Source of the DNA: Corallococcus coralloides DSM 2259
Lineage (GTDB): Bacteria; Myxococcota; Myxococcia; Myxococcales; Myxococcaceae
Direction of reading: 5' to 3'
Length of the DNA stretch: 64,000 bases
Assembly: GCF_000255295.1 (NCBI RefSeq)
Contig: NC_017030.1
Coordinates: forward strand, 6,038,328 to 6,102,327
In this document: positions 15,743-40,585 of the stretch, piece by piece
Layout: each line of letters begins with the position of its first letter
How positions within the stretch are numbered: position 1 is the first letter of the stretch
Notes under the pieces: generated by a model
Seen by the model: the letters and a program-made list of their open reading frames with translations, nothing else
Databases searched by the model: none
What the model was told of the DNA's origin: nothing
Program-made: the position numbers and the translations under genes

Positions 15743-16475
15743 TGGGCGCCTGCTGTGGGGGCTGGCGGCCCTGCTGTGCCTGTCGTGTGCTTCAGGTCCA
15801 AGGCAGTACGCGCAGACGTCCGACTCCGCGACCAGTGGATGTCTGCGCAATCCCACCTGCTACACGCAGCCGGGGGATGAAGCGTTCCTGCCGTGGGTGG
15901 ACAAGGCCGCCAGGGCCGCGGCCTCAGCGGGCGCCACGATGAAGCTCCTGGAGGCGGCGGACGTGGCCCGCATCGAGCACCTGTTGGTGGAGTGCGCGAA
16001 GGAGGCGAACCACGCCGTCAATGAACGTGAGTACGGCGAGGGGAAATACCCGGACGACAAGGAGTGCTTGCGCGTGGTGGGCTACGACAAGTACGGCGAT
16101 CCCATCCGACGCCAGGCCGAGCTTGGGACGATGAAACATGACGTTGCCTTCGCCTGCGTGCGGCGCGAAATCCTCCGGCTCTTCCCCAAGAACGTCTCGA
16201 TTGAGCCGCGCTATAGCGGCGACACCAGCTCTGGCGGCCCTGCCATGACGAGCATGTGGACGGGCTCGAACAAGCCCGACATCGTCCTTCACGCCACAGG
16301 TCAGCCTCTCCAGATTCAATGCATCTTCGACTTCAAGTTTCCGTGCACCCTCTCAGGCAAAAGCCAGCCGCTCGGCAGTTCTGAGACCCGGAAGCAAATG
16401 GCCCGCTACAAGGAGTTGGGCGGGAAATGCAGGCCAGCCATCATCACGCCTCAGTTTGGAGTCTTGCGTGAGTAA
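15735..16475 (+). CDS. Lipoprotein with C-terminal PD-(D/E)xK-like nuclease motif (candidate polymorphic/SitA-like toxin)
   Basis: ATG at 15735 (MIDGRLLWGLAALLCLSCAS, lipobox). The C-terminal region contains KPDIVLH ... IQCIFDFKFP, consistent with a D...(D/E)xK restriction-endonuclease-like active site. Confidence 0.55.
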   Translation: MIDGRLLWGLAALLCLSCASGPRQYAQTSDSATSGCLRNPTCYTQPGDEAFLPWVDKAARAAASAGATMKLLEAADVARIEHLLVECAKEANHAVNEREYGEGKYPDDKECLRVVGYDKYGDPIRRQAELGTMKHDVAFACVRREILRLFPKNVSIEPRYSGDTSSGGPAMTSMWTGSNKPDIVLHATGQPLQIQCIFDFKFPCTLSGKSQPLGSSETRKQMARYKELGGKCRPAIITPQFGVLRE

Positions 16476-17472
16476 GTACCCTTCATTCCACCACTTCGCT
16501 AGGTCGCTCCCCCGAGTCCAACTGGTCCTGCGCGCTGTCTTCTATTTGCCGCATGACCATGCGGTCGTAGCACCCGTCCTCCAACGCACCCTCGATATCT
16601 ACCGGGACTTCATCGGGCTCAATGGCGGGGCACTGACCGTCGGAGAGGATTCCGACATCATTGAGGATGTCTTCCCGGTTCAATCCGAGTTCTGGGAGGA
16701 AGTTCAACGCCACCTCACCAAGCCTCGATTTGAACACCTGGACGACATGGAGCAAGACTCCTACTGGTTTCGAAGATTGACCAAGAGGGGTTTCGACACA
16801 TGGGTTCTCCTCAAGGGAGGAGAGTCGGATCCCAGCGGCTACGAATTCAGCTTCCGCTCTCGGCTTCCCTGGCGCGAACCTTCTTCTGAGTACAGCGTTC
16901 TGAGCGTGAAGGTCCCCATGCAGTACCTGGAGGATCAGGGGCCCGAGAAGGCACGTGAGCTGGCGCTGTCGCTGGCGGAGCTCCTTCCCTTCAGCACGGG
17001 CCATGCGGGACTGTCGCTTTCGTTCACCCGTGGGAGGTCGAAACTCCTTCCCCTCCTGAGGGATCAACTGGTCCAACATCCCGGCTGGGATGTTCCACGG
17101 GAGAGTACGTGGGGCATGGGGGAAGGCGTTGACGGCATCCACTGGCTGAACTTCCTGGGCCCTCCCCTCCTCGAAACCGTTGGCGGCATCCAGGCGCTCC
17201 GCTCGCACCTGAGCCATCCGGAGACCTCCGTCCAGGAGCTCACCGGAGGCCGTGCCTTGATCAGCCTGGGACCCGCGCCGCTCGCGGGGGACACGAAGCT
17301 GGGTGAGACACTGCCGGCGTATCGCGAGCTGGCCCGGTTCCTGGAGCCCTGGCTCCTGCCCTTCCCCCACGTCAACACCTGGGACGGCTACACCGACGAA
17401 GAGGCCCGCCTCTGGTGGCGCCGCTTCCTGGAGGCCCCTCCCGAGAAGATATCCGACCCACGCGACGGGTAA
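16456..17472 (+). CDS. Hypothetical cytoplasmic protein, possibly DUF3396/type-VI-immunity-like (candidate immunity partner)
   Basis: ORF 16456..17472 has a TTG or GTG start overlapping the upstream stop. It is about 330 aa with no signal peptide. The family assignment comes from recall of Myxococcus DUF3396 proteins and is low-confidence. Confidence 0.5.
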
Positions 17473-26423: not shown

Positions 26424-27824
<1,401 letters not shown>

Positions 27825-27873
27825 TTACCGCGCGTCTTGGGTCGCCGCGCCATTTCCGTTACAAGCCGCCGCC

Positions 27874-29472
27874 ATGTTCAACGTCATCAACGTCTCCAAG
27901 GCCTATGGGCCCAAGAAGCTGTTCGAGGAGGTCAACGTCGCCTTCTCGCCGGGCCGCCGCTACGGCCTGACCGGTCCGAACGGGGCCGGCAAGTCCACGT
28001 TCATGAAGATCCTCGCGGGAGACGAGGAGCAGGACACGGGCGAGATCATCCGCCCGCGCAAGCTGGGCATCCTGCGCCAGGACCACTTCCGCTATGAGAA
28101 CGACCGCGTCATCGACGTGGTGTTGATGGGCAACCGCCACCTGTGGGCGGCGATGGACGAGAAGAACAAGCTGCTCGCCAAGTCGGACATCACCGAGGAG
28201 GACGGCAACCGGCTGGGTGAGCTGGAAGGCGTCATCGCGGAAGAGGACGGCTATTCGGCGGAGAGCGACGCGGCCACGCTGCTGGCCGGCCTTGGCATCG
28301 AGGAGTCCTTCCACGAAGAGCCCATGCGCCAGCTGACGGGCGGCCTGAAGCTGCGCGTGTTGCTCGCGCAGGCGCTGTTCGGCAAGCCGGAAGGGCTGCT
28401 GCTCGACGAGCCCACGAACAACCTGGATATCGATTCCATCCGCTGGCTGGAGAACTTCCTGCATGTGTACGAGGGCGTGCTGATCACCATCAGCCACGAC
28501 CGGCACTTCCTGAACTCCATCTGCACGCACATCGCGGACATCGATTACGAGACCATCATCCAGTACACGGGTGGTTACGACGACATGGTCCGGCAGAAGT
28601 CGCAGCTGCGCACCCGGGTCGAGTCCGAGACGGCGGAGAAGAAGAAGAAGATCGCCCAGCTGCAGGACTTCGTGGCGCGCTTCCACGCCGGTACGCGCGC
28701 GTCGCAGGTGCAGAGCCGCATCAAGCAGATCGACAAGCTGAAGACGGAGGACCTGAAGCGCTCGAACATCGCGCGGCCGTTCATCCGGTTCGACCAGAAG
28801 GTGGTGAGCGGCCGGCAGACGCTGATGTTCGAGGGGCTGAAGAAGTCCTTCGACGGGCAGCAGGTCATCAAGCCGTTCACGGGCCTGGTCTGCAAGGGCG
28901 AGCGCATCTGCGTGATTGGCCGCAACGCCGTGGGTAAGTCCACGCTGGTGAAGATGCTGGCGGGGCAGCTGGAGCCGGACGCGGGCACCATCACCTGGGG
29001 CCACCAGGCGACGGTGGGCTACCTGCCGCAGGACCACCACGGCGTCATCCACAAGGGCACGACGTGCTTCGGCTACCTCCGGGAGATCAGCGAGAAGCTG
29101 ACGAACGAGGAGATTTCCGGCGTGTTGGGCCGGATGCTCTTCTCGGGTGAGGAGCGGATGAAGGCGACGGACACGCTCTCCGGCGGTGAGACGGTGCGCG
29201 TGCTGTTGTCCAAGCTGATGATCACGCAGGACAACGTGCTGATCCTCGACGAGCCGACGAACCACCTGGACCTGGAGTCCATCGCGGCGCTGGCGGAAGG
29301 CCTGTCGAAGTTCGAGGGAACGGTCATCTGCGTGACGCACGACCAGGAGCTCATCTCCGAGGTCGCGACCCGCATCTGGAGCCTGGAGGCGGGCAAGGAC
29401 GTGCTCGACTTCAACGGCCCCTACTCCGAGTTCATGGAGAAGCACGCGGACGCGGCGCTCAAGCGTCGGTAG
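27874..29472 (+). CDS. ABC-F family ATPase (tandem ABC domains, no TMD; ribosome-associated/translation-factor-type)
   Basis: ATG at 27874 (MFNVINVSKAYG) within ORF 27412..29472. There are two Walker A motifs (GPNGAGKST, GRNAVGKST) and two signature motifs (LTGGLKLR, LSGGETVR). The Lys-rich interdomain linker is typical of ABC-F. Confidence 0.9.
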   Translation: MFNVINVSKAYGPKKLFEEVNVAFSPGRRYGLTGPNGAGKSTFMKILAGDEEQDTGEIIRPRKLGILRQDHFRYENDRVIDVVLMGNRHLWAAMDEKNKLLAKSDITEEDGNRLGELEGVIAEEDGYSAESDAATLLAGLGIEESFHEEPMRQLTGGLKLRVLLAQALFGKPEGLLLDEPTNNLDIDSIRWLENFLHVYEGVLITISHDRHFLNSICTHIADIDYETIIQYTGGYDDMVRQKSQLRTRVESETAEKKKKIAQLQDFVARFHAGTRASQVQSRIKQIDKLKTEDLKRSNIARPFIRFDQKVVSGRQTLMFEGLKKSFDGQQVIKPFTGLVCKGERICVIGRNAVGKSTLVKMLAGQLEPDAGTITWGHQATVGYLPQDHHGVIHKGTTCFGYLREISEKLTNEEISGVLGRMLFSGEERMKATDTLSGGETVRVLLSKLMITQDNVLILDEPTNHLDLESIAALAEGLSKFEGTVICVTHDQELISEVATRIWSLEAGKDVLDFNGPYSEFMEKHADAALKRR

Positions 29473-29545: not shown

Positions 29546-29608
29546 CGCGTGTCCATCCCTCTCCCGGGTGATGTCACTCCCTTGACCGGGTCGGCAAGAC
29601 TCACGCTA

Positions 29609-30826
29609 AACGACCGCGCATGAATCCCGATCGGCTCGGAGGGTAGGCAGGCGCTGGGAGCGGCAGGAAAGGGGCAGGAGCTCGCGCCGTTCGGCCTTGT
29701 GTGCGCAAGAACCGGATGAAGAAGCGAGTCCTGCCTCAGGGAAGGCAACAACTACGCCTGCGATGTCCTGACCGCAGGCGGCTGATTCGCTGGGGAGAGA
29801 GGACTGGCTGCCCGCTCACCTTGCGGCGGTGCCTGGCGGTAGCGAAGGTGGCCAGTGGTCAGTCACGGACGCAAGCCGCGCGGCAACTGCTGTGCGCCAC
29901 GTCCACGGTGGTGTCCGCGGTTCAGCGCTTCCAGGAATCAGGCCGAGAAGGCCTCTTGGACGGGCGTGCTCAAAGTGGGCAGCGCAAAGTGGATGAGCGA
30001 TTCCGGCAGACGTTGTGCCGGGTGCTGGAAGGCACGCCGCGGCAGTCCGGTTGGCGGCGCACGACGTGGACGCGCGAGTTGCTGGTCCGTGAGGTGGAGA
30101 GGCGAGGCTGGGTACGCGTCTCGCCCGCGACGATGGGACGCGCCTTGGCCTCGGTGGGAGCCCAGAGAAGGCGTCCGCGTCCCGTGGTGTGCTGCCCCTG
30201 GCCGGAGCGCAGACGCCGTCGGCGCCTCTGGCAGCTGAAATGCCGTGCGGCCTTCGCCCGGCCCGAGGAGCCCGTGCTTTTCGAGGATGAGATGGACGTG
30301 CACCTCAACCCGAAAATCGGTCCCGACTGGACGTTGCCTGGACAGCGCAGAGAGGTCGTCACTCCGGGCAACAACCAGAAGCGTTTCGTGGCGGGAGCGC
30401 TGGATGCGCGCACGGCCCGGGTGACTTGGGTGCAGGGGGAGAAGAAGACGAGTGCTCTCTTCATTGACCTGGTGCGCGCCGTGGACGCCGCCTATCCCAG
30501 GGCGAAGCGTCTGCATTTCATCCTCGACAATGCCGCCACCCACTCCAGCAAGAAGACGCAGAAGGCGCTGGAGGCACTGGGCGAGCGGCTGGTGCTGCAC
30601 TTCCTTCCGCCATACTGCCCGGAGGGCAACCGCATCGAACGCCTGTGGTGGGACGTGCACGCCAACGTCACCCGTAACCATCGCTGCAAGAAAATGGAGG
30701 CGCTCATGACCGAGGTGGACGCCTACCTCGACGCGCGGAACACCCAGAAGTCCGCCAGCCCCTTGCTGCGCGTCGCCTCCGCTCGACGCGCAGCTTGAGA
30801 CCATTCGAGAATTACGATCGGTCGTT
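29609..30826 (+). mobile_element. IS630/Tc1-mariner family insertion sequence, apparently intact (1218 bp), flanked by TA target-site duplications at 29607-29608 and 30827-30828
   Basis: Terminal inverted repeats are present: AACGACCG at the left end, CGGTCGTT at the right end. It is inserted just downstream of the ABC-F terminator and encodes a single DDE transposase ORF. Confidence 0.8.
29701..30798 (+). CDS. IS630-family DDE transposase
   Basis: There is an N-terminal HTH region (...LTLRRCLAVAKVASGQSRTQAARQLLCATSTVVSAVQRFQESGREGLLD). The DDE_3 catalytic residues sit in LFEDEMDVHLNP, HFILDNAATH and PPYCPEGNRIERLW. Confidence 0.85.
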   Translation: MRKNRMKKRVLPQGRQQLRLRCPDRRRLIRWGERTGCPLTLRRCLAVAKVASGQSRTQAARQLLCATSTVVSAVQRFQESGREGLLDGRAQSGQRKVDERFRQTLCRVLEGTPRQSGWRRTTWTRELLVREVERRGWVRVSPATMGRALASVGAQRRRPRPVVCCPWPERRRRRRLWQLKCRAAFARPEEPVLFEDEMDVHLNPKIGPDWTLPGQRREVVTPGNNQKRFVAGALDARTARVTWVQGEKKTSALFIDLVRAVDAAYPRAKRLHFILDNAATHSSKKTQKALEALGERLVLHFLPPYCPEGNRIERLWWDVHANVTRNHRCKKMEALMTEVDAYLDARNTQKSASPLLRVASARRAA

Positions 30827-31021
30827 TAGGCCGTCAGTCCATGGTGGCCTGGCTGGGGGTGAGCGATGGTTCTGTCCATGATGTGGGGGGGTGTTGGCGT
30901 CGTTGTTCGCGGCCTTGTGGTTCCGGTCCCGTTCTCGCATTCACCCGTTGCAGGAACGGCTCAAGCCCATCGTGAACATTGACGCCGAGAAGAAACGAAT
31001 CACTGAAGAGATCGCACAATG

Positions 31022-34000
31022 TTACCGAAAAAGCCGTATGCGCTCTTGCAGAGTAAGAGCGATCGGAATGTTACGTGCCGCGAGCTCGGCAGCTAATTCC
31101 ACTAACGCCTCGCGCGCTTTGGCATCATTCGCAAGGGCGGGAGCATTGCGTGTCAAGGCCGTATCGAGCAACTCAACAAGAGCATCTCCATTTTCATCGC
31201 GCCACCACTGGCGCCCCGTCTTGCTGACACGCAATGCGGCCGATATCCACCTCAATCCGTCAAGACGCAAGAATGTCCCTACTTCGGACGACAGGAAGCG
31301 ACAGAAGCGTCTCACACTCTCCTCGCTGTGGCCGAGATGTGCTTGTGCCCAGCGGTCGTAAAGATCACGCATGTCCGGCACTGATTTAGACGGCAGGTGC
31401 TTTAGCAAGTCCTCATTACCAAAGCCGAGCAGATCACCCAACAAGCGCTCACCATAGGGCCAGTATAGGTCGCGCGCTCCCCACTTCGCGTCCAGTGCAT
31501 ATTGCACGAGTGAACGCCACAATGGCCGGAACCGCTCAACATCGCAGCCCTGATTGAGCAAGAGAAATAGATTACGGGTAAAGTACTGAAGCGCGTAATG
31601 CGCCTTGGGGCCGCACGAAAGAACCGCTTCCCAAACGGGGCGGGCTTCGGCCGGTGACAGTGAAACTGAGAGCGAACCGAGCTTGGCTAAAAGATCGTAA
31701 CCAATCTGCTGACTAGGGGGAGAGCACTCGCCATCCGCCTCCCCCTGGGCTTGCATATATTCAACTTCACAGTCCCAAAGCTGCAAAACGAGTTCGCGAT
31801 CTTTAAGCAAATCGCCAGTGCCTAGTCCTTTCAGCAGCCAATTGAACAGCAGGCCGAGGAAATTTATGTCTAGGCCGATCGAGTGTCGAGCGTCGAATTC
31901 TCGACCTCTGCATTGCTGTACTGTCAACCCGTTGGCACGAGCCCATCTAGCCCTCTCAAGACGCTGATAGCCCATCAAGACGCGGCCGATTTTGACACCA
32001 GTCGAGACGGCCCCCTCTTGGCGAAGAGGGAAGCGCCTAATCCTCGCCAGCCAACCGTGCCAAATAGGCCCAATTCTCTCTGAATCATCATAATTCGGCG
32101 CTAGCATTACTAGAGCAGACCAAAACAACCCCACTTGGAGAAATCGCCACCAAGTGGAGCCCAACATTTCGCGCTTAGCGTAAGCAATCGACACAAGCGT
32201 GACCACAACCCTGCTATCACCGCAAGTGAGAAGGCGAAGCACAAGAGCTTCCCATTCGGCGCTCTCGTCAAATTTAGTCCAGAGATGCATGACAGCGAAG
32301 GCAGTAAACGGGAGCGAGTCCTCTCCCCCGCTGATTCGTGCAGTACGAATAGCGACCGCGGTTTCTCCCACCTCCAGCGCCGACGCCCGAATGATCTCCA
32401 CCAAACGCTGCCTCTTCGTTGGCTCCCTACCCAACCAAGAAGCGCCGCAAACAACGAGCGTTGTCGCCAGAGCCAACATGCTCTTCATCTTAACTGATGA
32501 CTCGACCGTGCTGCTGCGATTCGACGACTCCAGAAGCTCATAAAACCTTCCTGCAACGTCGTCGGAAAGCGATTGCTGAGCCCGCAACAACTGCTCACAT
32601 TGACTTGGGATTATGAGCTGCTGAATTTCAGCCTCATGGGACTTCTGCCATGCTTTCGCCTCTTGACGAAGGCTCTCGGGATAGACCAGCGCAAAAACCT
32701 CTGCACCTGTCTCGCTATCGATGACGCGATGATAGTTCGCTCGATCGAGAGCCGCCCACATGAACCTGAGTTCCAGTGACTGTTTAGGATCATTGGGGAT
32801 CACCCATGTCGGAATTGCGAACTGCAGTTTTTCCGCGACGACATCGTCCTCCTTGAGCAAGTTGGCCACGATATCAACGAACCTCTGCCGGCGGTGCGCC
32901 GCCAGTGTCCAACTTTTTGCGAACTCAAACATCACTTCACTGCTGTTCGCCCAATGCCAGCCAATGAATCTACTACCAACCTGCTCAACACACTGAGCAT
33001 CCCAATAGAACATCAACGGACTTGTAAGCAGGGGCGCGAGTGGTCCCGGCAAAAGCGCAGGTTGGTACTTGCCAAGATTGACGAGCAAGCCGAGGAACGC
33101 AACTGACGCGCCCTCCTTTAAAATACCCTCAACCCAGTGCGCAATGTCTGCGTTTTTGTCGACCTGCAGCGTCAACCATCTTTCGAGCGCATCAAGAGCG
33201 CAATGTAAATTCCCATCACGAATAGAATTCTCCTGCGTCCAACCAAACAGCAGAGGGCCGCCAATGAACTCTTTCTCAATGCCATTTCCCATCTCAAGCT
33301 TCACGGTCGGAACCGAGCGATTCGTCCCAAACCGAGCGCTATCTACCCATCGATCCGTGCAAAAATTCACAAGCTTGATTATCGCCTGCAAAGCCTCGCG
33401 CGGCGCAATTTGGAGAAAGAGAAAGAACGGCGTCTTCCAGAACGCAGTCGGATAGCCGTCCCTTGCAGCCTCAAGCCCTAATTTTATCTTCCACCGTCCG
33501 GCTCCGTATTCCTCGCAAGGCTGATCTTTAATAATGAGCGCCAGCAAAACTTCTGCTGCCACTGTCGGCCGCGTGCGCATTAACGGCCCCAGACTGCTAC
33601 CGCCTAGGCATGCATTTCGAAAATCGTGATCGATCGGGCGCATTGCTCCAAGCGGCCACGGTTCCAATTCGTGTCGGCCTGGAACTACAAGCTGTGGTAA
33701 GTCTCTGCGCCGCGATTCAGTCGCTCGCATCCGGGTGTCGTTTTTGAGACGCGCTGCACGCTCTTCAGCTTGTCTCTTACGAGCGACTGCGACGCGTATG
33801 AGGACGTCCTTTGAAATGGGACGTCGGCCAGACATCTCCAATGCCCAGCACGACACTTCATCAGGTAGATCAGGCGCACCTGCGAGTGGTGCGGCGAAAA
33901 ACACCGGATCCTGGCTCAGAAACATGACTCCTTGCTCTTTGAGAACCTGCACAGTTCTAGCCATTGCTATTGCGAGTTCGGCAAACTCTCGCCGGAACGG

Positions 34001-36295
34001 CGTCGGATTGCCGTTCGCGAGCATCGGCGGCGTGCCGGACAGCCACGTCTCGGCCAACTTCGCCAGAGCAGGCAAAAGCATGGATGTGATGCGGTCGCGG
34101 TGGGTCGCGAGAAAGCGTACTATGGGCGGCCATCTCGCAGCGATCACCGACCGGTATCGAGTCTCTATGTGTAAGCCAAGTGTCGGATTGTCGCTCAAGG
34201 GCGGTAAAACACGTGGCACCGTACCAATGTGATGAAAGCGGGTAAGAAGCCGAGTCATTCGCTTTCCGTTCTCGGCTAAAAGTAGATCGACGCGCTCGTA
34301 AAGAAAGCGCTCAGCTTCCGGGTCGAGGCAAAGGGCGTCGAGCAACATGTCGGAAGCAAGGGGCATTTCTGTTTCTTCCGCTGCAGCAAACGCCTCATCC
34401 CACGCTGTTGCCGTTCCTGCGGGTTGGCGCAGCAGGAACTGTCCGAGCATGCGCAGTGCTGCACTCCATAATGGGTTAGACGCCAGAGCGGACCAGCGAG
34501 CCGTGTTACGGGCGATCTGCTTCAGAAACTGAAACCGCGCCCAGTCGGCTGCGAGATCGTGCTCGAACTCAAGGTGATTAGTCCGCTCGTTGAGACGAAG
34601 TGGAAGGTGGGCTGGACCTTGTTGAAATGTCCTAGCATCACCTGGCCGAAGGTCCGTGAGAGCAAAACTTCGCTCGAAGGATGCCTCGCGCTCTGCAAGG
34701 CGCATCAGAAGCTCTTGGATTTCAGCTCGGCCGTCGGTCCAGAAGCGCCAAAGCCGGTCTGCGACTGCCGCATGGGACGCCGGAGCTACTGTTCCAGCTG
34801 TAAGCGCCGCTCTAGCCTGGATGACCCAACCCAGCGTCTTCAGGTTCGCTAAGACGGCGACTGTTTCTGGATGGCCAACCAGCCAACTGAGCGCTGGCGT
34901 GGCGCTGAGCGCAGCCTCCACGTCGGAACTCTTGAGCAACCCCAGCTCAATAAGGACCGAAGGTTGGGCGCCAAGTATTGTCTCTGCTCGTTCAGCCCAG
35001 CTTTGGGTCTGACTTATCACAATCAGCCGCCAAGCGGCTTGGGGGGAATTATCTGAAGCTAAGAGTTCATGAACAAACCGCCTAACAATGCTCGTTTCAC
35101 TCGGCTCTATCCGCTCCACTGAATCAAGGACCAACACATTTCGAGCGTTCGCGCTCGCCTTCAGGACATCAAGCAGTGCGTGCTGAAGTGGAAGACTTGA
35201 TCGTCGCACAACACTAAGCGCTGCCTGTACTTGATTCGGACCAAGCCACACCTGAGTCCATGCCGCGAAGCGCGTGTCCAGGACTGTTTTCACCAGCGCC
35301 GATTTGCCCGCGCCTGAGTCGCCGAAGACAACAGAAATCGAGTTCTCGGCAAGCGCCGCCTCCAGCTTTCCAGCTTCATCGTGCCGGGCGATACTCACAC
35401 CGTTCGGCAACGATGCCTCGATGTGTGCTTTGTAGTCCGTGGTCAGGTTGGCGAGTGTTGTCCAATCCCCCGAGCCCGCGCCATCCGATGGTCCGCTCGA
35501 CGCCGGAACCGGCCCCGACTCCAGGAAGGCCCGTGTGTAAGCGGCCGCGACATCGCATGCATAGGGCCGCCAGTTCTCCACGGTGGCGCTGCCCTTCTCC
35601 GCGTCCGCCAGATCGGACACCCCCCGAATCATCAAAAACCTGGGGCGCGAGCCGGTCTGGTGCAGAGCGAGCGCAGTCCCTCCTCCTTCCATTTCCACGC
35701 CTATGAGCTTGTCCCAAACCTCTTGGTTCTGCCGCAGCGTCTCCCCATCGGCCAGCACGTCGCCGCCAGAGAGGATGATACCCGAGTGACGCAGTGGCCT
35801 ACCTGGCACTGGTCGAACTTCTTGCGTCCGGCTTTCCCAGCCCCCAGGCAGGTTAATGGCTGCATCGAGTAAGGTAGCGTCCACGCGATAAACCTCCCAT
35901 CGGGTGATACGCCTATCCTCAAGCCGCTTGCCTACGGTGTAGTCCGCTATCTGGTTGGCGACGAGGACATCCCCCAGGCCTGCGACCGACCTTCGCCCTC
36001 CTGCAATGCCCACAAAGAGCACGTGCCGCGGGCCCCACCGGTGCACGACCGCCATCGCCTTTGCGGCGGCCTGGATCGGCCCCATTCCAGCTAGACTGGT
36101 CACCAGGACACGGTAGCGTGCGCCATCCGAACGCATGGTCGGAACAAAAGCTTCGTAGTAAGTGTGCGGATCATCATCCTCTCTATCCAGCCTGCTGTAC
36201 CCGGGCAGATGGCGGAGCATCGCATCCCGTTCCTGCTCAAGTGCCGCGATAATGACGAAATCCACCGGACGTGAAACCTGCGCTGCCTGATGCAT
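31022..36295 (-). CDS. 1757-aa STAND-type P-loop NTPase with N-terminal purine nucleoside phosphorylase / MTA-SAH nucleosidase-like (PNP_UDP_1) domain and a ~1200-aa helical C-terminal region; Avs/NLR-like candidate antiphage defence protein
   Basis: The N-terminal ~270 aa match the Pfs/MTAN pattern: VDFVIIAALEQERDAM, SLAGMGPIQAAAKAMAVV...VLFVGIAGG, GDVLVANQIADY, VEMEGGGTA, RGVSDLAD. Then come Walker A VVFGDSGAGKSALV and Walker B NVLVLDSVE. GC is about 56% against ~70% for the flanks. ATG at 36293-36295, TAA stop at 31022-31024. Confidence 0.8.
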   Translation of the reverse strand: MHQAAQVSRPVDFVIIAALEQERDAMLRHLPGYSRLDREDDDPHTYYEAFVPTMRSDGARYRVLVTSLAGMGPIQAAAKAMAVVHRWGPRHVLFVGIAGGRRSVAGLGDVLVANQIADYTVGKRLEDRRITRWEVYRVDATLLDAAINLPGGWESRTQEVRPVPGRPLRHSGIILSGGDVLADGETLRQNQEVWDKLIGVEMEGGGTALALHQTGSRPRFLMIRGVSDLADAEKGSATVENWRPYACDVAAAYTRAFLESGPVPASSGPSDGAGSGDWTTLANLTTDYKAHIEASLPNGVSIARHDEAGKLEAALAENSISVVFGDSGAGKSALVKTVLDTRFAAWTQVWLGPNQVQAALSVVRRSSLPLQHALLDVLKASANARNVLVLDSVERIEPSETSIVRRFVHELLASDNSPQAAWRLIVISQTQSWAERAETILGAQPSVLIELGLLKSSDVEAALSATPALSWLVGHPETVAVLANLKTLGWVIQARAALTAGTVAPASHAAVADRLWRFWTDGRAEIQELLMRLAEREASFERSFALTDLRPGDARTFQQGPAHLPLRLNERTNHLEFEHDLAADWARFQFLKQIARNTARWSALASNPLWSAALRMLGQFLLRQPAGTATAWDEAFAAAEETEMPLASDMLLDALCLDPEAERFLYERVDLLLAENGKRMTRLLTRFHHIGTVPRVLPPLSDNPTLGLHIETRYRSVIAARWPPIVRFLATHRDRITSMLLPALAKLAETWLSGTPPMLANGNPTPFRREFAELAIAMARTVQVLKEQGVMFLSQDPVFFAAPLAGAPDLPDEVSCWALEMSGRRPISKDVLIRVAVARKRQAEERAARLKNDTRMRATESRRRDLPQLVVPGRHELEPWPLGAMRPIDHDFRNACLGGSSLGPLMRTRPTVAAEVLLALIIKDQPCEEYGAGRWKIKLGLEAARDGYPTAFWKTPFFLFLQIAPREALQAIIKLVNFCTDRWVDSARFGTNRSVPTVKLEMGNGIEKEFIGGPLLFGWTQENSIRDGNLHCALDALERWLTLQVDKNADIAHWVEGILKEGASVAFLGLLVNLGKYQPALLPGPLAPLLTSPLMFYWDAQCVEQVGSRFIGWHWANSSEVMFEFAKSWTLAAHRRQRFVDIVANLLKEDDVVAEKLQFAIPTWVIPNDPKQSLELRFMWAALDRANYHRVIDSETGAEVFALVYPESLRQEAKAWQKSHEAEIQQLIIPSQCEQLLRAQQSLSDDVAGRFYELLESSNRSSTVESSVKMKSMLALATTLVVCGASWLGREPTKRQRLVEIIRASALEVGETAVAIRTARISGGEDSLPFTAFAVMHLWTKFDESAEWEALVLRLLTCGDSRVVVTLVSIAYAKREMLGSTWWRFLQVGLFWSALVMLAPNYDDSERIGPIWHGWLARIRRFPLRQEGAVSTGVKIGRVLMGYQRLERARWARANGLTVQQCRGREFDARHSIGLDINFLGLLFNWLLKGLGTGDLLKDRELVLQLWDCEVEYMQAQGEADGECSPPSQQIGYDLLAKLGSLSVSLSPAEARPVWEAVLSCGPKAHYALQYFTRNLFLLLNQGCDVERFRPLWRSLVQYALDAKWGARDLYWPYGERLLGDLLGFGNEDLLKHLPSKSVPDMRDLYDRWAQAHLGHSEESVRRFCRFLSSEVGTFLRLDGLRWISAALRVSKTGRQWWRDENGDALVELLDTALTRNAPALANDAKAREALVELAAELAARNIPIALTLQERIRLFR

Positions 36296-36397
36296 CCCGA
36301 GTCACCTCTCCCCCCTGTTGTTCTACCACTGAAGGCACTGGTTGCTTCCAGCCTTTCGCCCGGCTTGGTCTACGTCAAGCTCCACCATGCGTACCTA

Positions 36398-36835
36398 AAC
36401 GACCGATCGTAGTTCTCGAACGGATTCAAGCTGCACATCGAGCAGGTGCGGCGCGCAGCAAGGGGCTGGCTGTCTTCTGCGAGTTGCGCGTGTCGAGGTA
36501 GGCGTCCACCTCGGCCAGGAGCGCCTCCATCTTCTTGCAGCGATGGTTGCGGGTGACGTTGGCATGCGCGTGCCACCAGACGCGCTCACTGCGGTTGCCC
36601 TCGGGGCAGTACGGCGGCAGGAAGTGCAGCACCAGCCGCCCCCAATTTCTTCCAGCGCCTTCTGCGTCTTCATACTGCAGTGGGTCACGGCATTATCGAG
36701 GATGAAGTGCAGACGCTTGACTTGGGGGTTGGCGGCGTCGACGGCGCGCACCAAGTCGATGAAGAGCGCACTCATCTTCTTCTCGCCCTGCACCCACGTC
36801 ATTTCCAAGAGCAGATCGACCCACTTCGACCGCAA
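36398..36835 (-). mobile_element. Truncated, frameshifted IS630-family copy (3' ~440 bp only), inverted relative to the intact copy and ~85% identical at protein level
   Basis: The terminal IR plus TA sit at 36396-36405 (cTAaacgaccgatcgtagttctcgaa), matching the right end of the element at 30800-30828. Two frames (36426..36632 and 36395..36835) encode the transposase C-terminus (LHFLPPYCPEGNR, HFILDNAVTH). Similarity to the transposase is lost upstream of about 36800. Confidence 0.75.
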
Positions 36836-37120: not shown

Positions 37121-37459
37121 ATGCCTATCCAGTGGAAACCTCAACAACGCAAGCGCATTGAAAAGATACTCAACGACCATCCAATCGACAGTGGCGAATG
37201 CGGCGAAGCGGCCGAGAAGATCCTACCAATAGCTCAGGTGCTCGATCCTGGCTCACATAGAATAAAAATCACACCAAAGGGCCATTACAGATACGTCTGC
37301 CCCAAAATCCCCCTCACTGAACCTTGGTTTAACCATACGGCAACAGCAGTCACCCTCCACTATGTCGATGTTCTGACGGGCGCCAAAGGCACAGAGAAAT
37401 CAGCCTACTGGGAAGAGCACTGGAAGCATCCGGAATGCCTTGAGTTCGAGAAGTCATGA
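37121..37459 (+). CDS. Hypothetical small protein (112 aa), low-GC, first gene of a two-gene module
   Basis: ATG at 37121. It overlaps the next gene by 4 nt (ATGA). About 50% GC. The spacing IDSGECGEAAE ... WFNHTATAVTLHYVD might indicate a papain-like Cys/His pair; this is speculative. Confidence 0.5.
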   Translation: MPIQWKPQQRKRIEKILNDHPIDSGECGEAAEKILPIAQVLDPGSHRIKITPKGHYRYVCPKIPLTEPWFNHTATAVTLHYVDVLTGAKGTEKSAYWEEHWKHPECLEFEKS

Positions 37460-38547
37460 GCACTCTCAAAGAAGCGGTCCTCTCCTACATAGACGAACAG
37501 CTCAATTCAATCCTTGCCGCCCCAGGCATGTGGGGCTCCGGAGAGAGCGTTGAGTTTCAGTTCATTCAACTCCTTGAGTTTCGTTCAGTCATACTCAGGC
37601 CTGAGTTGGAAAAAACGAATCCCCGGTCCGTCCTTGATGATTATCAAAAATTCCTAGGGGAGGCATTTCCAGGATCGCATCCCGCCCCGCTCTTTCGACT
37701 GGTCGCAAAGCACCGACGAGAACAAGATTTCACCAGCCTGCTTGAGCGATTCAGTGTTCGACAAAAACAAGTCCTATCCAGACACATCGAGAATCAGCAG
37801 CACGACATAATCATAAAGCTAAATCTATCGAAATCATATCACACCCCCCGCGCCTCGACGCTGAGCTCGTATTATGAGATATTTCATCGAGTCCTTCGAG
37901 CAGTCTCACGCAGAAGAGGCACTCGCGGACTGGCTAGCCACGACATTGAGGAGGCCATCGACTTCACCTTGCCCGATGTCATCATACAACAGGCCAATGG
38001 CGCGCCTGCAAGCATCACCATGCCGCTTGACCAGTTAGAGTCGGCAGAGCGCGAAGATGTCAGTCGTGGCATAAGCAATCTTGTAGCGGTTAGCGAATGG
38101 GCGGCAGACCCCGATGGCTCTGTCGAATCGCTTGTCAACTCAATTCCACATGAAGAGTATCCAGAGCGCATTGCGGCCCAGGCACTCCGCCTTATCCCTG
38201 GTGAGGATTTGGCCGTTCAGACTGTTGAGCTGAGTGGGACCCTTATCAGGCGCCCTAAGCCGGTCGTTCTTATGCCGTTTTATGGCGAACGAATGGTCGA
38301 GGTTGTCAGAACGAGACGAAAGGGACGCAAGTTCAATGAGTTTGGCACAATTCGAGCGGTTGACATTGATCAACTTTCAATGCGAATTAAGACAAAAAAT
38401 CGCACATACAAATGTTGGCTCAAAGACCGAACATTGCTTGAACGCGCCAAAAGGGCTCTTGGGCGGAGCGCCCAAATCGTTGGGACGATCTACAACACGC
38501 CAGGCAGTCCTGTGGTTGTTGACGTCAAAGACATAGATATTCACTGA
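37456..38547 (+). CDS. Hypothetical protein (363 aa), low-GC, second gene of the two-gene module
   Basis: ATG at 37456, translationally coupled to the upstream gene. No recognisable domain. Composition is AT-rich relative to the host. Confidence 0.55.
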   Translation: MSTLKEAVLSYIDEQLNSILAAPGMWGSGESVEFQFIQLLEFRSVILRPELEKTNPRSVLDDYQKFLGEAFPGSHPAPLFRLVAKHRREQDFTSLLERFSVRQKQVLSRHIENQQHDIIIKLNLSKSYHTPRASTLSSYYEIFHRVLRAVSRRRGTRGLASHDIEEAIDFTLPDVIIQQANGAPASITMPLDQLESAEREDVSRGISNLVAVSEWAADPDGSVESLVNSIPHEEYPERIAAQALRLIPGEDLAVQTVELSGTLIRRPKPVVLMPFYGERMVEVVRTRRKGRKFNEFGTIRAVDIDQLSMRIKTKNRTYKCWLKDRTLLERAKRALGRSAQIVGTIYNTPGSPVVVDVKDIDIH

Positions 38548-39136: not shown

Positions 39137-40585
39137 ATGTATCCGAGACGCCGTCTTCTGGCCCGTGGGCAGTGGTTGTTCGACCTCAGACCGCATCGGC
39201 TCATCGTCTTCCACGGAGCCGAAGGCGTGCGCCGGGAGGTCAGTGGAGACGTTCCGAATCCTCCGCCCGCGCCCGTGGTGCTCGCCGCGCTCGATGAGTC
39301 ACCGGACGTTTGCGTGGGGAGCGGGGATCGGCGTGTCTTCTCTGTGGGGGCCGGCGCGAGCGCTCCCGTTCAGCCCTTTCCGAGGAAGTGCTTCGATCTC
39401 ATCACCGATGGGGATCGGCTCATCGGAACGATGGTGGACGGCGCCCTCAAGCTGACCACCCTCTTCACGACCGATGGGTCCGGGCAGCGATGGGAACCCA
39501 TGACCTTGCCCAAGCCCGTGAGCGTCAGTCACGGGTACGGATATTCCGAGGGGCGCCCCCACCGGCAGTCCCCCGATGGGGCATTCCTCGACACGAGCCC
39601 CTTTGGCACCACCGTCGTGGAGAAGGGCCGGGGCCGCGTCTACGTGCTCCGTGCGGGGGCGGCTCAGCCGGAGGGCGCGCTTCAGGTGGAGCCGGGCCAT
39701 GAGCAGGACATCTGGCGGGCCCAGGCCACTCCCCACGGTGTGCTTCTCCTGCTCGTCATCAATTACCGGCAGACGGCGCTCCTCCACTTCGCGCTCAATG
39801 GCACCCTGCTCGGCTCCCTACCGAAGCAGGATGGTGATGACGATGAGGGTGAGGAACTGACCTGGGGCGGTGCCGGGGTGTGCGTCCTCGACGCGGACCG
39901 GGCGCTCCTCTTCGTCCAGGACAAGATCCTCCTGGTGTCCCTGCCCGGGCTCCAGGTGCTGGAGACGCTCGCGGGGGAGTGGCCCAGCTTCGTGTCCGTG
40001 ACGCCCGCGGGGCCTCACCGGTGGTGGGTGGGCCCCGAGGACAGTGACGCGCTCTTCCTGCTCACCGCCGAGCCCGGACACCCCTTGCGCCTCCACGCCT
40101 CACACCGTCCGGTGAGCCCAGGCGCGCCGCTCATGCACGTGGGCTACAAGACGCCCACGCTCCACTGGGCCGAGTACAGCTCGGCGCCGCTGACCGTGTC
40201 CGCGCCCGTGACCGAAACGTGGCGTGCGGTGGTGCGCAATGACGGGACCACGTGTGAGGCCGTGCGGATCCGCGTGTCCGGGGTGCTCGTCGGCGCTCGC
40301 GTGGTGGACGTGAGCGTGCGGTATCGCGGCCAGCCGCTCCCGATGGTGGAGGAGCACCGCGTGAACCTCGTGGGGGTTACCGCCGGACTCGAGGGAGGAG
40401 CCACCGCGGAGCTGGAGGTGACCTTCAAGCCCCGGAGCGAGGGCTCGGGAGCGCTGACCATCACCGTCGAGCCATGCTCCTGGCAGTCGCAGGGCAAAGA
40501 GTGGCAGTGGGACAAAGAGGAGTCTCGCGTCCTCGCGGTGACGGGCCATCCCGCATCCGCCCAGTTCCTGCTCACGGTGGAGTAG
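39137..40585 (+). CDS. Hypothetical protein (482 aa), high-GC
   Basis: It has coherent GC3 and a mixed composition. The start is uncertain. No assignable domain. Confidence 0.5.
   Translation: MYPRRRLLARGQWLFDLRPHRLIVFHGAEGVRREVSGDVPNPPPAPVVLAALDESPDVCVGSGDRRVFSVGAGASAPVQPFPRKCFDLITDGDRLIGTMVDGALKLTTLFTTDGSGQRWEPMTLPKPVSVSHGYGYSEGRPHRQSPDGAFLDTSPFGTTVVEKGRGRVYVLRAGAAQPEGALQVEPGHEQDIWRAQATPHGVLLLLVINYRQTALLHFALNGTLLGSLPKQDGDDDEGEELTWGGAGVCVLDADRALLFVQDKILLVSLPGLQVLETLAGEWPSFVSVTPAGPHRWWVGPEDSDALFLLTAEPGHPLRLHASHRPVSPGAPLMHVGYKTPTLHWAEYSSAPLTVSAPVTETWRAVVRNDGTTCEAVRIRVSGVLVGARVVDVSVRYRGQPLPMVEEHRVNLVGVTAGLEGGATAELEVTFKPRSEGSGALTITVEPCSWQSQGKEWQWDKEESRVLAVTGHPASAQFLLTVE

Follow-up and report, generated by a model that had tools for sequence, protein, structure and literature searches.

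The nucleosidase domains of Cap17, an effector of CBASS, and of DtcC, from Detocs, are ATP/dATP nucleosidases (Rousset et al., 2023). The same study reported a nucleosidase domain at the N-terminus of diverse antiviral STAND (Avs) genes and of fungal NLRs, and the domain of one of the latter, NLRN of Hyaloscypha variabilis, cleaved ATP in vitro (Rousset et al., 2023). PNPase effectors had been predicted in NTPase conflict systems between 2015 and 2020. At least 90 Avs families are recognised by now, and exchange of the N-terminal module among close homologues is a signature of these families. In the literature that we searched, no bacterial nucleosidase-Avs protein has been characterised experimentally. 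Here we describe COCOR_04801, a gene of Corallococcus coralloides DSM 2259 contained in a 64,000-nucleotide stretch of contig NC_017030.1 (positions 6,038,328 to 6,102,327 of the forward strand; hereafter, the window). With a probability of about 0.7, we read its product as a single-gene Avs protein that belongs to a divergent, unnamed sister family of Avs4 and carries a nucleosidase effector. Nucleosidase-Avs fusions and PNPase effectors were known beforehand; a nucleosidase joined to an Avs4-like core was seen in no other sequence examined, and it is not a new principle.

The frame of COCOR_04801 is open throughout its 5274 nt, with an ATG start and 1757 codons, and the eight motifs cited in an initial annotation of the sequence are each present once in this intact frame, at the expected residues. 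That annotation took the N-terminus for a PNP_UDP_1/MTAN-like domain, and both profile and fold agree with it. Residues 14-258 match Pfam PNP_UDP_1 (PF01048; E 6.7e-16; score 58.8 bits, gathering threshold 25.1), with single copies of the nucleosidase motifs IIAALEQE (residue 15), GMGPIQAA (70), GIAGG (96), GDVLVA (108), VEMEG (200), and RGVSDLAD (224). An AlphaFold2 model of residues 1-285, built on 31 homologous domains, has a mean predicted local distance difference test (pLDDT) score of 90.8. Compared with the PDB by Foldseek, the model returned methylthioadenosine/S-adenosylhomocysteine nucleosidases or futalosine hydrolases in all of its top 50 matches (best E 6e-19), with template modelling scores to MTANs, normalised to the target, of 0.78-0.82. 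Matched to an Escherichia coli MTAN sequence, E22, M202-E203, R224, and D228 are the counterparts of Glu12, Met173-Glu174, Arg193, and Asp197. E22, E203, and D228 are invariant across the 31 homologous domains. E22, M202-E203, and D228 are likewise invariant when COCOR_04801 is aligned to E. coli MTAN, to one Cap17-like and one DtcC-like protein, and to two further fusions that contain a nucleosidase; in this alignment, K123, R161-P162, and W242 are common to COCOR_04801 and the immune-type domains only, and are absent from MTAN.

Database searches place this domain among immune proteins. In a tblastn search of annotated plasmids, its best matches included a nucleosidase-SAVED fusion adjoining a 'CBASS oligonucleotide cyclase', which is the Cap17 architecture (38% identity, E 3e-31), and a response-regulator-nucleosidase fusion in a three-gene operon of Detocs layout (25.6% identity, E 1e-13), while solved MTANs were reached only at about E 1.6e-5 in a single-sequence PDB search with phmmer. 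PADLOC returned PDC-M60C (5.5e-25) and the CBASS 'Effector PN-superfamily' (1e-17). The NCBIfam equivalog cut-offs for MTAN (NF004079) and for futalosine hydrolase were not reached, at 68 bits against 169 and 46.5 bits against 124.7, respectively. Some 80 homologous domains come nearest to it (39-63% identity), and all of them are situated at the N- or C-terminus of proteins of ~970-2340 residues, and most of these proteins contain NB-ARC, NACHT, TPR, WD40, TIR, SAVED, caspase, or GGDEF modules. The closest relatives are myxobacterial, from Hyalangium (63% identity) and Myxococcus (56%). Judged by pairwise search scores, the domain appears to resemble proteins of the Cap17 and DtcC types much more closely than it does housekeeping MTAN, in keeping with the immune-type effector that had been proposed. 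Sequence and structural model together support a PNP/MTAN-fold nucleosidase of immune type, its activity being predicted.

The region downstream of the nucleosidase contains the STAND Walker patterns GxxGxGKS/T and hhhhD[D/S]xE, and an alignment of 18 family members shows G325, S327, G328, G330, K331, S332, D391, and E394 to be invariant. When a family profile of residues 277-1757 was compared with the PDB, a single significant entry was found (8DGF, E 2.1e-13), which is E. coli Avs4 (EcAvs4) bound to the PhiV-1 portal. The matched stretches are collinear, pairing residues 295-432, in the NTPase, with EcAvs4 residues 208-337, residues 924-1099 with 761-937, and, weakly, residues 1531-1739 with 1370-1574, and all three end at matching distances from the C-terminus in the two proteins. 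The predicted structure of the sensor also matches 8DGF uniquely, by a wide margin, in two independent methods. The NCBIfam and PADLOC models of Avs4 match COCOR_04801 at residues 945-1070, and in five further family members Avs4 was the sole NCBIfam family matched, with 30-90 bits against a cut-off of 1500. The initial annotation had suspected an Avs-type STAND sensor, which fits a family profile and a sensor model that match 8DGF only. It had not recognised the arrangement as a named system; the protein is in fact a distant relative of Avs4. By sequence comparison, COCOR_04801 is a remote homologue of Avs4 along the whole length of the NTPase and sensor, and not an Avs4 equivalog.

The relatives of this core carry other N-terminal domains. 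In every member of the core family, homology to COCOR_04801 starts at residues 275-278, just past a disordered linker (pLDDT <50). A search with a single sensor sequence against protein cluster representatives at 50% identity returned 1136 clusters at E <=1e-3, of which 482 had E <=1e-30, and the family is annotated as hypothetical proteins only. Seventeen full-length relatives (28-50% identity) cover 59-84% of COCOR_04801 and lack PF01048. Among the best 150 representatives, 77 were full-length: 71 of them begin with a 'TRSTSGAGFxFED' domain of ~270 residues, one begins with an HNH-type endonuclease, and none with a nucleosidase. Most of the 13 genome-contig relatives with a readable N-terminus have 'TRSTSGAGFxFED' or the related 'GxGFxFED', and one has HNH; among the relatives from the first search, too, the N-terminus is of one of these two types (TRSTSGAGFxFED or HNH). 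Over all the samples, a few relatives have the HNH-type domain and some have other N-termini. A nucleosidase was found in none of the ~110 core-family relatives examined, and no second case of an Avs4-like core paired with a nucleosidase occurred among the sequences examined. The nearest relatives of the NTPase-sensor core are proteobacterial, at 50% identity, and GC content at third codon positions (GC3) drops from 0.685 in the part encoding the nucleosidase to 0.58 in the core. Most simply, an Avs4-like gene arrived by horizontal transfer and exchanged its original N-terminal module for a nucleosidase.

The N-terminal domain of the siblings is recognised neither by Pfam nor by sequence or profile searches of the PDB, and matches only a PADLOC candidate model, PDC-M54A. 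This model (1657 positions) matches the N-terminal domain and NTPase of one sibling, P0002, at 6e-14, and does not match COCOR_04801. The fuller pattern of the domain is 'TRSTSGAGFxFED...GWxIDDLL...LAxSCKSNxQV' (relatives P0002-P0016; loci L001-L007), and its D...DD...SCK arrangement suggests a PD-(D/E)xK, Cap4-like nuclease.

The core family has a patchy distribution across Alpha-, Beta-, and Gammaproteobacteria, Acidobacteriota, and Planctomycetota, with relatives in Rhizobium, Polaromonas, Frateuria, Aromatoleum, Mesorhizobium, sphingomonads, Bryobacteraceae, and Pirellulaceae. A scan of a genome collection found no core relative in any other myxobacterium, and the gene is not a housekeeping one conserved in synteny across Myxococcales, a possibility that the initial annotation had kept in view. 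Copies of the family are carried on plasmids of Paraburkholderia, Burkholderia, and Aromatoleum, and in Proteobacteria the family is also found on integrative elements and in defence islands. One relative adjoins AbiEi/AbiEii, a TIR protein, a relaxase, and type IV secretion genes; another adjoins a phage-type integrase, a transposase, a HEPN protein, and MobA; and a third adjoins a serine recombinase. In the contexts examined the family gene is always solitary, with no conserved neighbour, partner, or downstream effector gene, and we therefore regard it as a single-gene system and reject a multi-gene one. These distributions support an accessory and mobile, rather than housekeeping, status for COCOR_04801. 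As a separate observation, the copy on plasmid NC_006824.1 of Aromatoleum aromaticum EbN1 (110557-116548) is split by the IS1182-like element ISAzo2 and is therefore inactivated there.

In the C. coralloides chromosome the gene has a foreign composition. It lies in a low-GC stretch of ~9.5 kb (~29.6-39.1 kb of the window), where GC content is 0.51-0.61 over 31-39 kb compared with ~0.70 in the flanks, and its GC3 is 0.60 compared with 0.78-0.93 in neighbouring host genes. The initial annotation had described a low-GC island flanked by insertion sequences (IS). The GC dip is real and IS630 sequences are present on both sides, but one of the two copies is truncated and they are only ~86% identical, and on these grounds a recent composite transposon was rejected. 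Both copies face COCOR_04801 with the same terminal repeat (…ACGATCGGTCGTTTAG), and that of the truncated copy lies 99 bp upstream of the start codon. No sigma-70-like promoter was found upstream in a scan restricted to the E. coli consensus. A search of the window for tRNA genes found none, nor did any Rfam family match between 14 and 40 kb.

The gene has been annotated at two lengths, as 1732 amino acids starting at Met26 (GenBank AFE06036.1) and as 1757 amino acids (RefSeq WP_083892326.1). The GenBank start is 25 codons too late: it would cut off window positions 36221-36295 (-), deleting the first beta-strand (residues 11-25) and the catalytic Glu22. The 1757-residue form is correct because residues 11-25 form strand beta-1, which carries the Glu22 conserved in all 31 homologous domains, and the ribosome-binding site agrees. 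Met1 at 36295 is the true start.

The analysis shows which domains the protein has and how they fold, that its catalytic and nucleotide-binding residues are conserved, that its effector was swapped, and that it lies in a mobile context of foreign composition. A mechanism can be proposed as well. The helical C-terminal domain, of ~1200 residues, would make direct contact with a conserved phage protein. Foremost among the candidates is the portal, and we put its being the trigger close to an even chance, though somewhat below it. Ligand binding would lift the autoinhibition of the NTPase (K331; D391/E394), which, by analogy with Avs3, Avs4, and Avs7, would swap ADP for ATP and thereby drive oligomerisation; the oligomers of those three proteins are tetrameric. 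Oligomerisation would gather the N-terminal nucleosidase domains. MTAN is a dimer in which the active site is completed by the partner subunit, and PNP-family enzymes are generally oligomeric, which makes induced proximity a plausible on-switch. Once active, the domain would cleave the N-glycosidic bond of ATP/dATP to give adenine together with (deoxy)ribose-5'-triphosphate, and the resulting depletion of ATP/dATP would starve the phage and arrest or kill the infected cell (abortive infection).

A number of observations weigh against this reading. The sensor shares just 12% identity with EcAvs4, and the Avs4 equivalog cut-off (NCBIfam NF041815) was missed, at 43.4 bits against 1500; because the protein fails both this threshold and that of MTAN, we describe it as 'Avs4-like, PNP effector' and not as Avs4. 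No Pfam STAND family reached its threshold (nSTAND1, 22.8 bits against a cut-off of 27.1), and NACHT and AAA_16 matched sibling proteins only, below threshold; the family profile, even so, matches the NTPase of Avs4 significantly. Published sensor families can be retargeted and portal sensing evolved twice, and a shared sensor fold does not guarantee a shared ligand. The position of MTAN Ser76 is Ile97 in COCOR_04801. Two of the five relatives examined sit among ordinary metabolic genes, and the region upstream of COCOR_04801 itself is a truncated IS. Lastly, the trigger, oligomeric state, substrate, and protective phenotype are what we infer.

Several alternatives keep the architecture and alter its function. 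The trigger could be another phage protein or a perturbation of the host rather than the portal, with the effector as described. The retargeting of published sensors leaves room for this, and we take it seriously while thinking it unlikely, given that 8DGF is the only specific structural match in either method and that similarity to Avs4 is collinear along the whole protein. We judge it improbable that the nucleosidase, in place of depleting ATP, frees the base from some other nucleotide (NAD, S-adenosylmethionine-derived nucleosides, or nucleoside monophosphates) or makes a signalling molecule. Kaur et al. (2020) suggested second-messenger production as the role of the PNPase-superfamily domains found in NTP-dependent conflict systems, specificity is not readable from the amino acid sequence, and Ser76 of MTAN is replaced by Ile97. 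However, the domain groups with Cap17-type and DtcC-type proteins, of which the tested members cleave ATP/dATP. A signalling product also sits poorly with the lack of any partner or downstream effector gene conserved beside family members, and with the position of the nucleosidase, which is that of the effector, filled by other N-terminal domains in the siblings.

Others remove the antiviral role altogether. COCOR_04801 may be an inactive relic, an IS-rearranged chimera that is unexpressed or non-functional, as the truncated IS so near its start, the missing sigma-70-like promoter, and the singleton status of the nucleosidase-core fusion in the databases searched could suggest. We hold this to be decidedly improbable for a frame that has stayed open for 5.3 kb in sequence of ~57% GC, with every catalytic, Walker, and family-invariant residue intact and a good ribosome-binding site; the promoter scan, moreover, was limited to the E. 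coli consensus. The protein could also be a non-antiviral, NLR-like death switch used in myxobacterial kin discrimination or developmental lysis, comparable to the fungal nucleosidase-NLR allorecognition proteins. Such fungal proteins exist, the literature reports that systems of this kind are enriched in multicellular bacteria, and the most similar nucleosidase domains are abundant in NLR-like multidomain proteins of Hyalangium, Myxococcus, Sorangium, and Minicystis. Yet the family to which the sensor core belongs is carried by non-social Proteobacteria on plasmids and integrative elements, the sensor has the fold of a phage-portal receptor, and COCOR_04801 is an insertion specific to the strain, bracketed by IS sequences and foreign in composition, all of which makes a social role very improbable. 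A long shot, if a slightly shorter one, is that a captured Avs4-like sensor received a new effector, a nucleosidase domain from myxobacteria, and now serves its social host as a death switch in self/non-self recognition or development or, in a milder version, that a non-portal ligand is combined with a non-ATP substrate; were either true, COCOR_04801 would be the founder of a functionally distinct Avs-like family. A regulatory ATPase with a housekeeping methylthioadenosine/S-adenosylhomocysteine nucleosidase or futalosine hydrolase at its N-terminus would account for the MTAN-like fold and for the E-values obtained with the two NCBIfam models (8e-19 for MTAN, 3e-12 for futalosine hydrolase). 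It is effectively refuted by scores far under both equivalog cut-offs, the foreign codon composition, and the absence of synteny or conservation in Myxococcales, and the nearest relatives are immune-type fusions. An Avs4-like antiviral protein with a nucleosidase effector remains the reading that we prefer. Features of the gene and its surroundings are collected in Table 1.

Table 1. Features of COCOR_04801 and its surroundings, in window coordinates.
Feature	Position	Strand	Basis or remark
tgt	26424-27632		Left of island
ABC-F ATPase	27412-29472		Left of island
Intact IS630-family element, terminal inverted repeats CTAAACGACCG...	29606..30830	(+)	190 bp past COCOR_04801 stop; DDE_3 and helix-turn-helix domains
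IS630 terminal inverted repeats	29606-29630 and 30805-30829		Of the intact element
IS630 transposase	29701-30798	(+)	Pfam DDE_3 5.5e-27 plus helix-turn-helix domains
COCOR_04801, whole gene	31022..36295	(-)	Open reading frame listing; 1757 amino acids plus stop codon; RefSeq WP_083892326.1
C-terminal alpha-helical sensor, predicted Avs4 sensor fold, residues 561-1757 (~1200 residues)	31025..34615	(-)	
STAND-type P-loop NTPase region, residues 295-560	34616..35413	(-)	Family-invariant motifs; family profile versus EcAvs4
Walker B VLVLDSVE, residues 387-394	35114-35137	(-)	Motif; VLVLDS single copy
Walker A GDSGAGKS, residues 325-332	35300-35323	(-)	Motif, single copy
Low-complexity Gly/Ser-rich linker PASSGPSDGAGSG, effector-swap junction, residues 263-276	35468..35509	(-)	Homology onset, pLDDT <50, GC3 drop
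N-terminal effector, predicted PNP/MTAN-fold nucleosidase of Cap17/DtcC immune type, residues 11-262	35510..36265	(-)	Pfam, PADLOC, AlphaFold2, Foldseek, alignment, tblastn
Catalytic residues of nucleosidase domain: E22, M202-E203, R224, S227-D228	within residues 11-262	(-)	Alignment
Shine-Dalgarno-like GGAGAGG	36305..36311	(-)	9 nt 5' of ATG at 36295; read from sequence
Truncated IS copy, ~86% identical, inverted	36394..36801	(-)	Inverted repeats I1/I2, pairwise alignment, weak DDE_3 match
482-residue open reading frame	39137-40585	(+)	Island right edge; GC3 0.84, host-like; no Pfam or PADLOC match

The island also holds a two-gene cassette, at 37121-37459 (+; 112 amino acids) and 37456-38547 (+; 363 amino acids, COCOR_04803), whose reading frames share an ATGA overlap. 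It lies in the lowest-GC stretch of the window (0.51), and it has no Pfam or PADLOC match. The 363-residue protein has 28 relatives, mostly myxobacterial, and a pair of 112-118 and 362-363 residues is also found in Archangium violaceum (L024, 5666-7089) and on a metagenome contig (L023, 5648-7092), beside unrelated neighbours. The cassette appears to be a mobile module in its own right, separate from the Avs-like gene, and a functional link between the two was rejected, as the pair recurs elsewhere without such a gene. Further right of the island are genes for a Ser/Thr kinase, a beta-lactamase-family protein, and GST. Elsewhere in the window, a 338-residue open reading frame at 16456-17472 (+) matches Pfam TsiV (E 8.5e-42) and coincides with a local GC dip (0.594 at 16-17 kb). 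TsiV is a type VI secretion immunity protein against VRR-NUC toxins, and this frame is possibly an orphan immunity gene.

COCOR_04801 leaves the present view of bacterial immunity as it is. What the gene offers is a natural effector swap on a scaffold anchored by the Avs4-portal structure from cryo-electron microscopy, with more than 100 relatives that have a different (nuclease-like) N-terminus and one that has a nucleosidase, a pair convenient for asking whether oligomerisation alone switches on a PNP-fold enzyme. Naming the 1136-cluster family Avs4-like would improve the annotation of defence genes, given that the PADLOC and NCBIfam models of Avs4 match COCOR_04801 weakly and in part. The gene is additionally a lead for phage defence in myxobacteria, a little-known subject, and its product is a candidate receptor for myxophage proteins.

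Among described systems, Avs4 (AVAST type 4), which senses the phage portal protein, resembles COCOR_04801 in being a single polypeptide of ~1600-1750 residues that starts with an effector, continues with a P-loop STAND NTPase, and ends in a large helical sensor, encoded by a lone gene on mobile elements; similarity is collinear through the NTPase, middle, and C-terminal regions, and the sensor-fold match is unique. The two differ in that COCOR_04801 is ~12% identical to Avs4, has ~76 extra residues between the NTPase and the middle region, and covers the PADLOC Avs4 model only in part, and NCBIfam calls Avs4 an anti-phage nuclease, whereas the effector of COCOR_04801 is a predicted nucleosidase. 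With MtnN/Pfs, a housekeeping enzyme of ~230 residues, the protein shares the fold and the catalytic triad, but it is only 17-23% identical, has insertions at residues 118-170, and carries Ile97 in place of Ser76. The PADLOC model PDC-M60C, like PDC-M54A a candidate and uncharacterised one, matches the nucleosidase domain and not the whole protein. Cap17 and DtcC share with it the same type of PNP fold, the catalytic Glu/Glu/Asp, and K123, R161-P162, and W242. In COCOR_04801, where activity is predicted, the activating module is part of the same polypeptide and not a separate one, and it is a STAND sensor, not a SAVED domain that binds cyclic oligonucleotides or a phospho-receiver domain. The PNP-Avs and PNP-NLR proteins follow the same design, with a nucleosidase at the N-terminus, a NOD/STAND NTPase in the centre, and a sensor at the C-terminus; those proteins use NB-ARC, NACHT, TPR, and WD40 modules, whereas the core of COCOR_04801 is Avs4-like.

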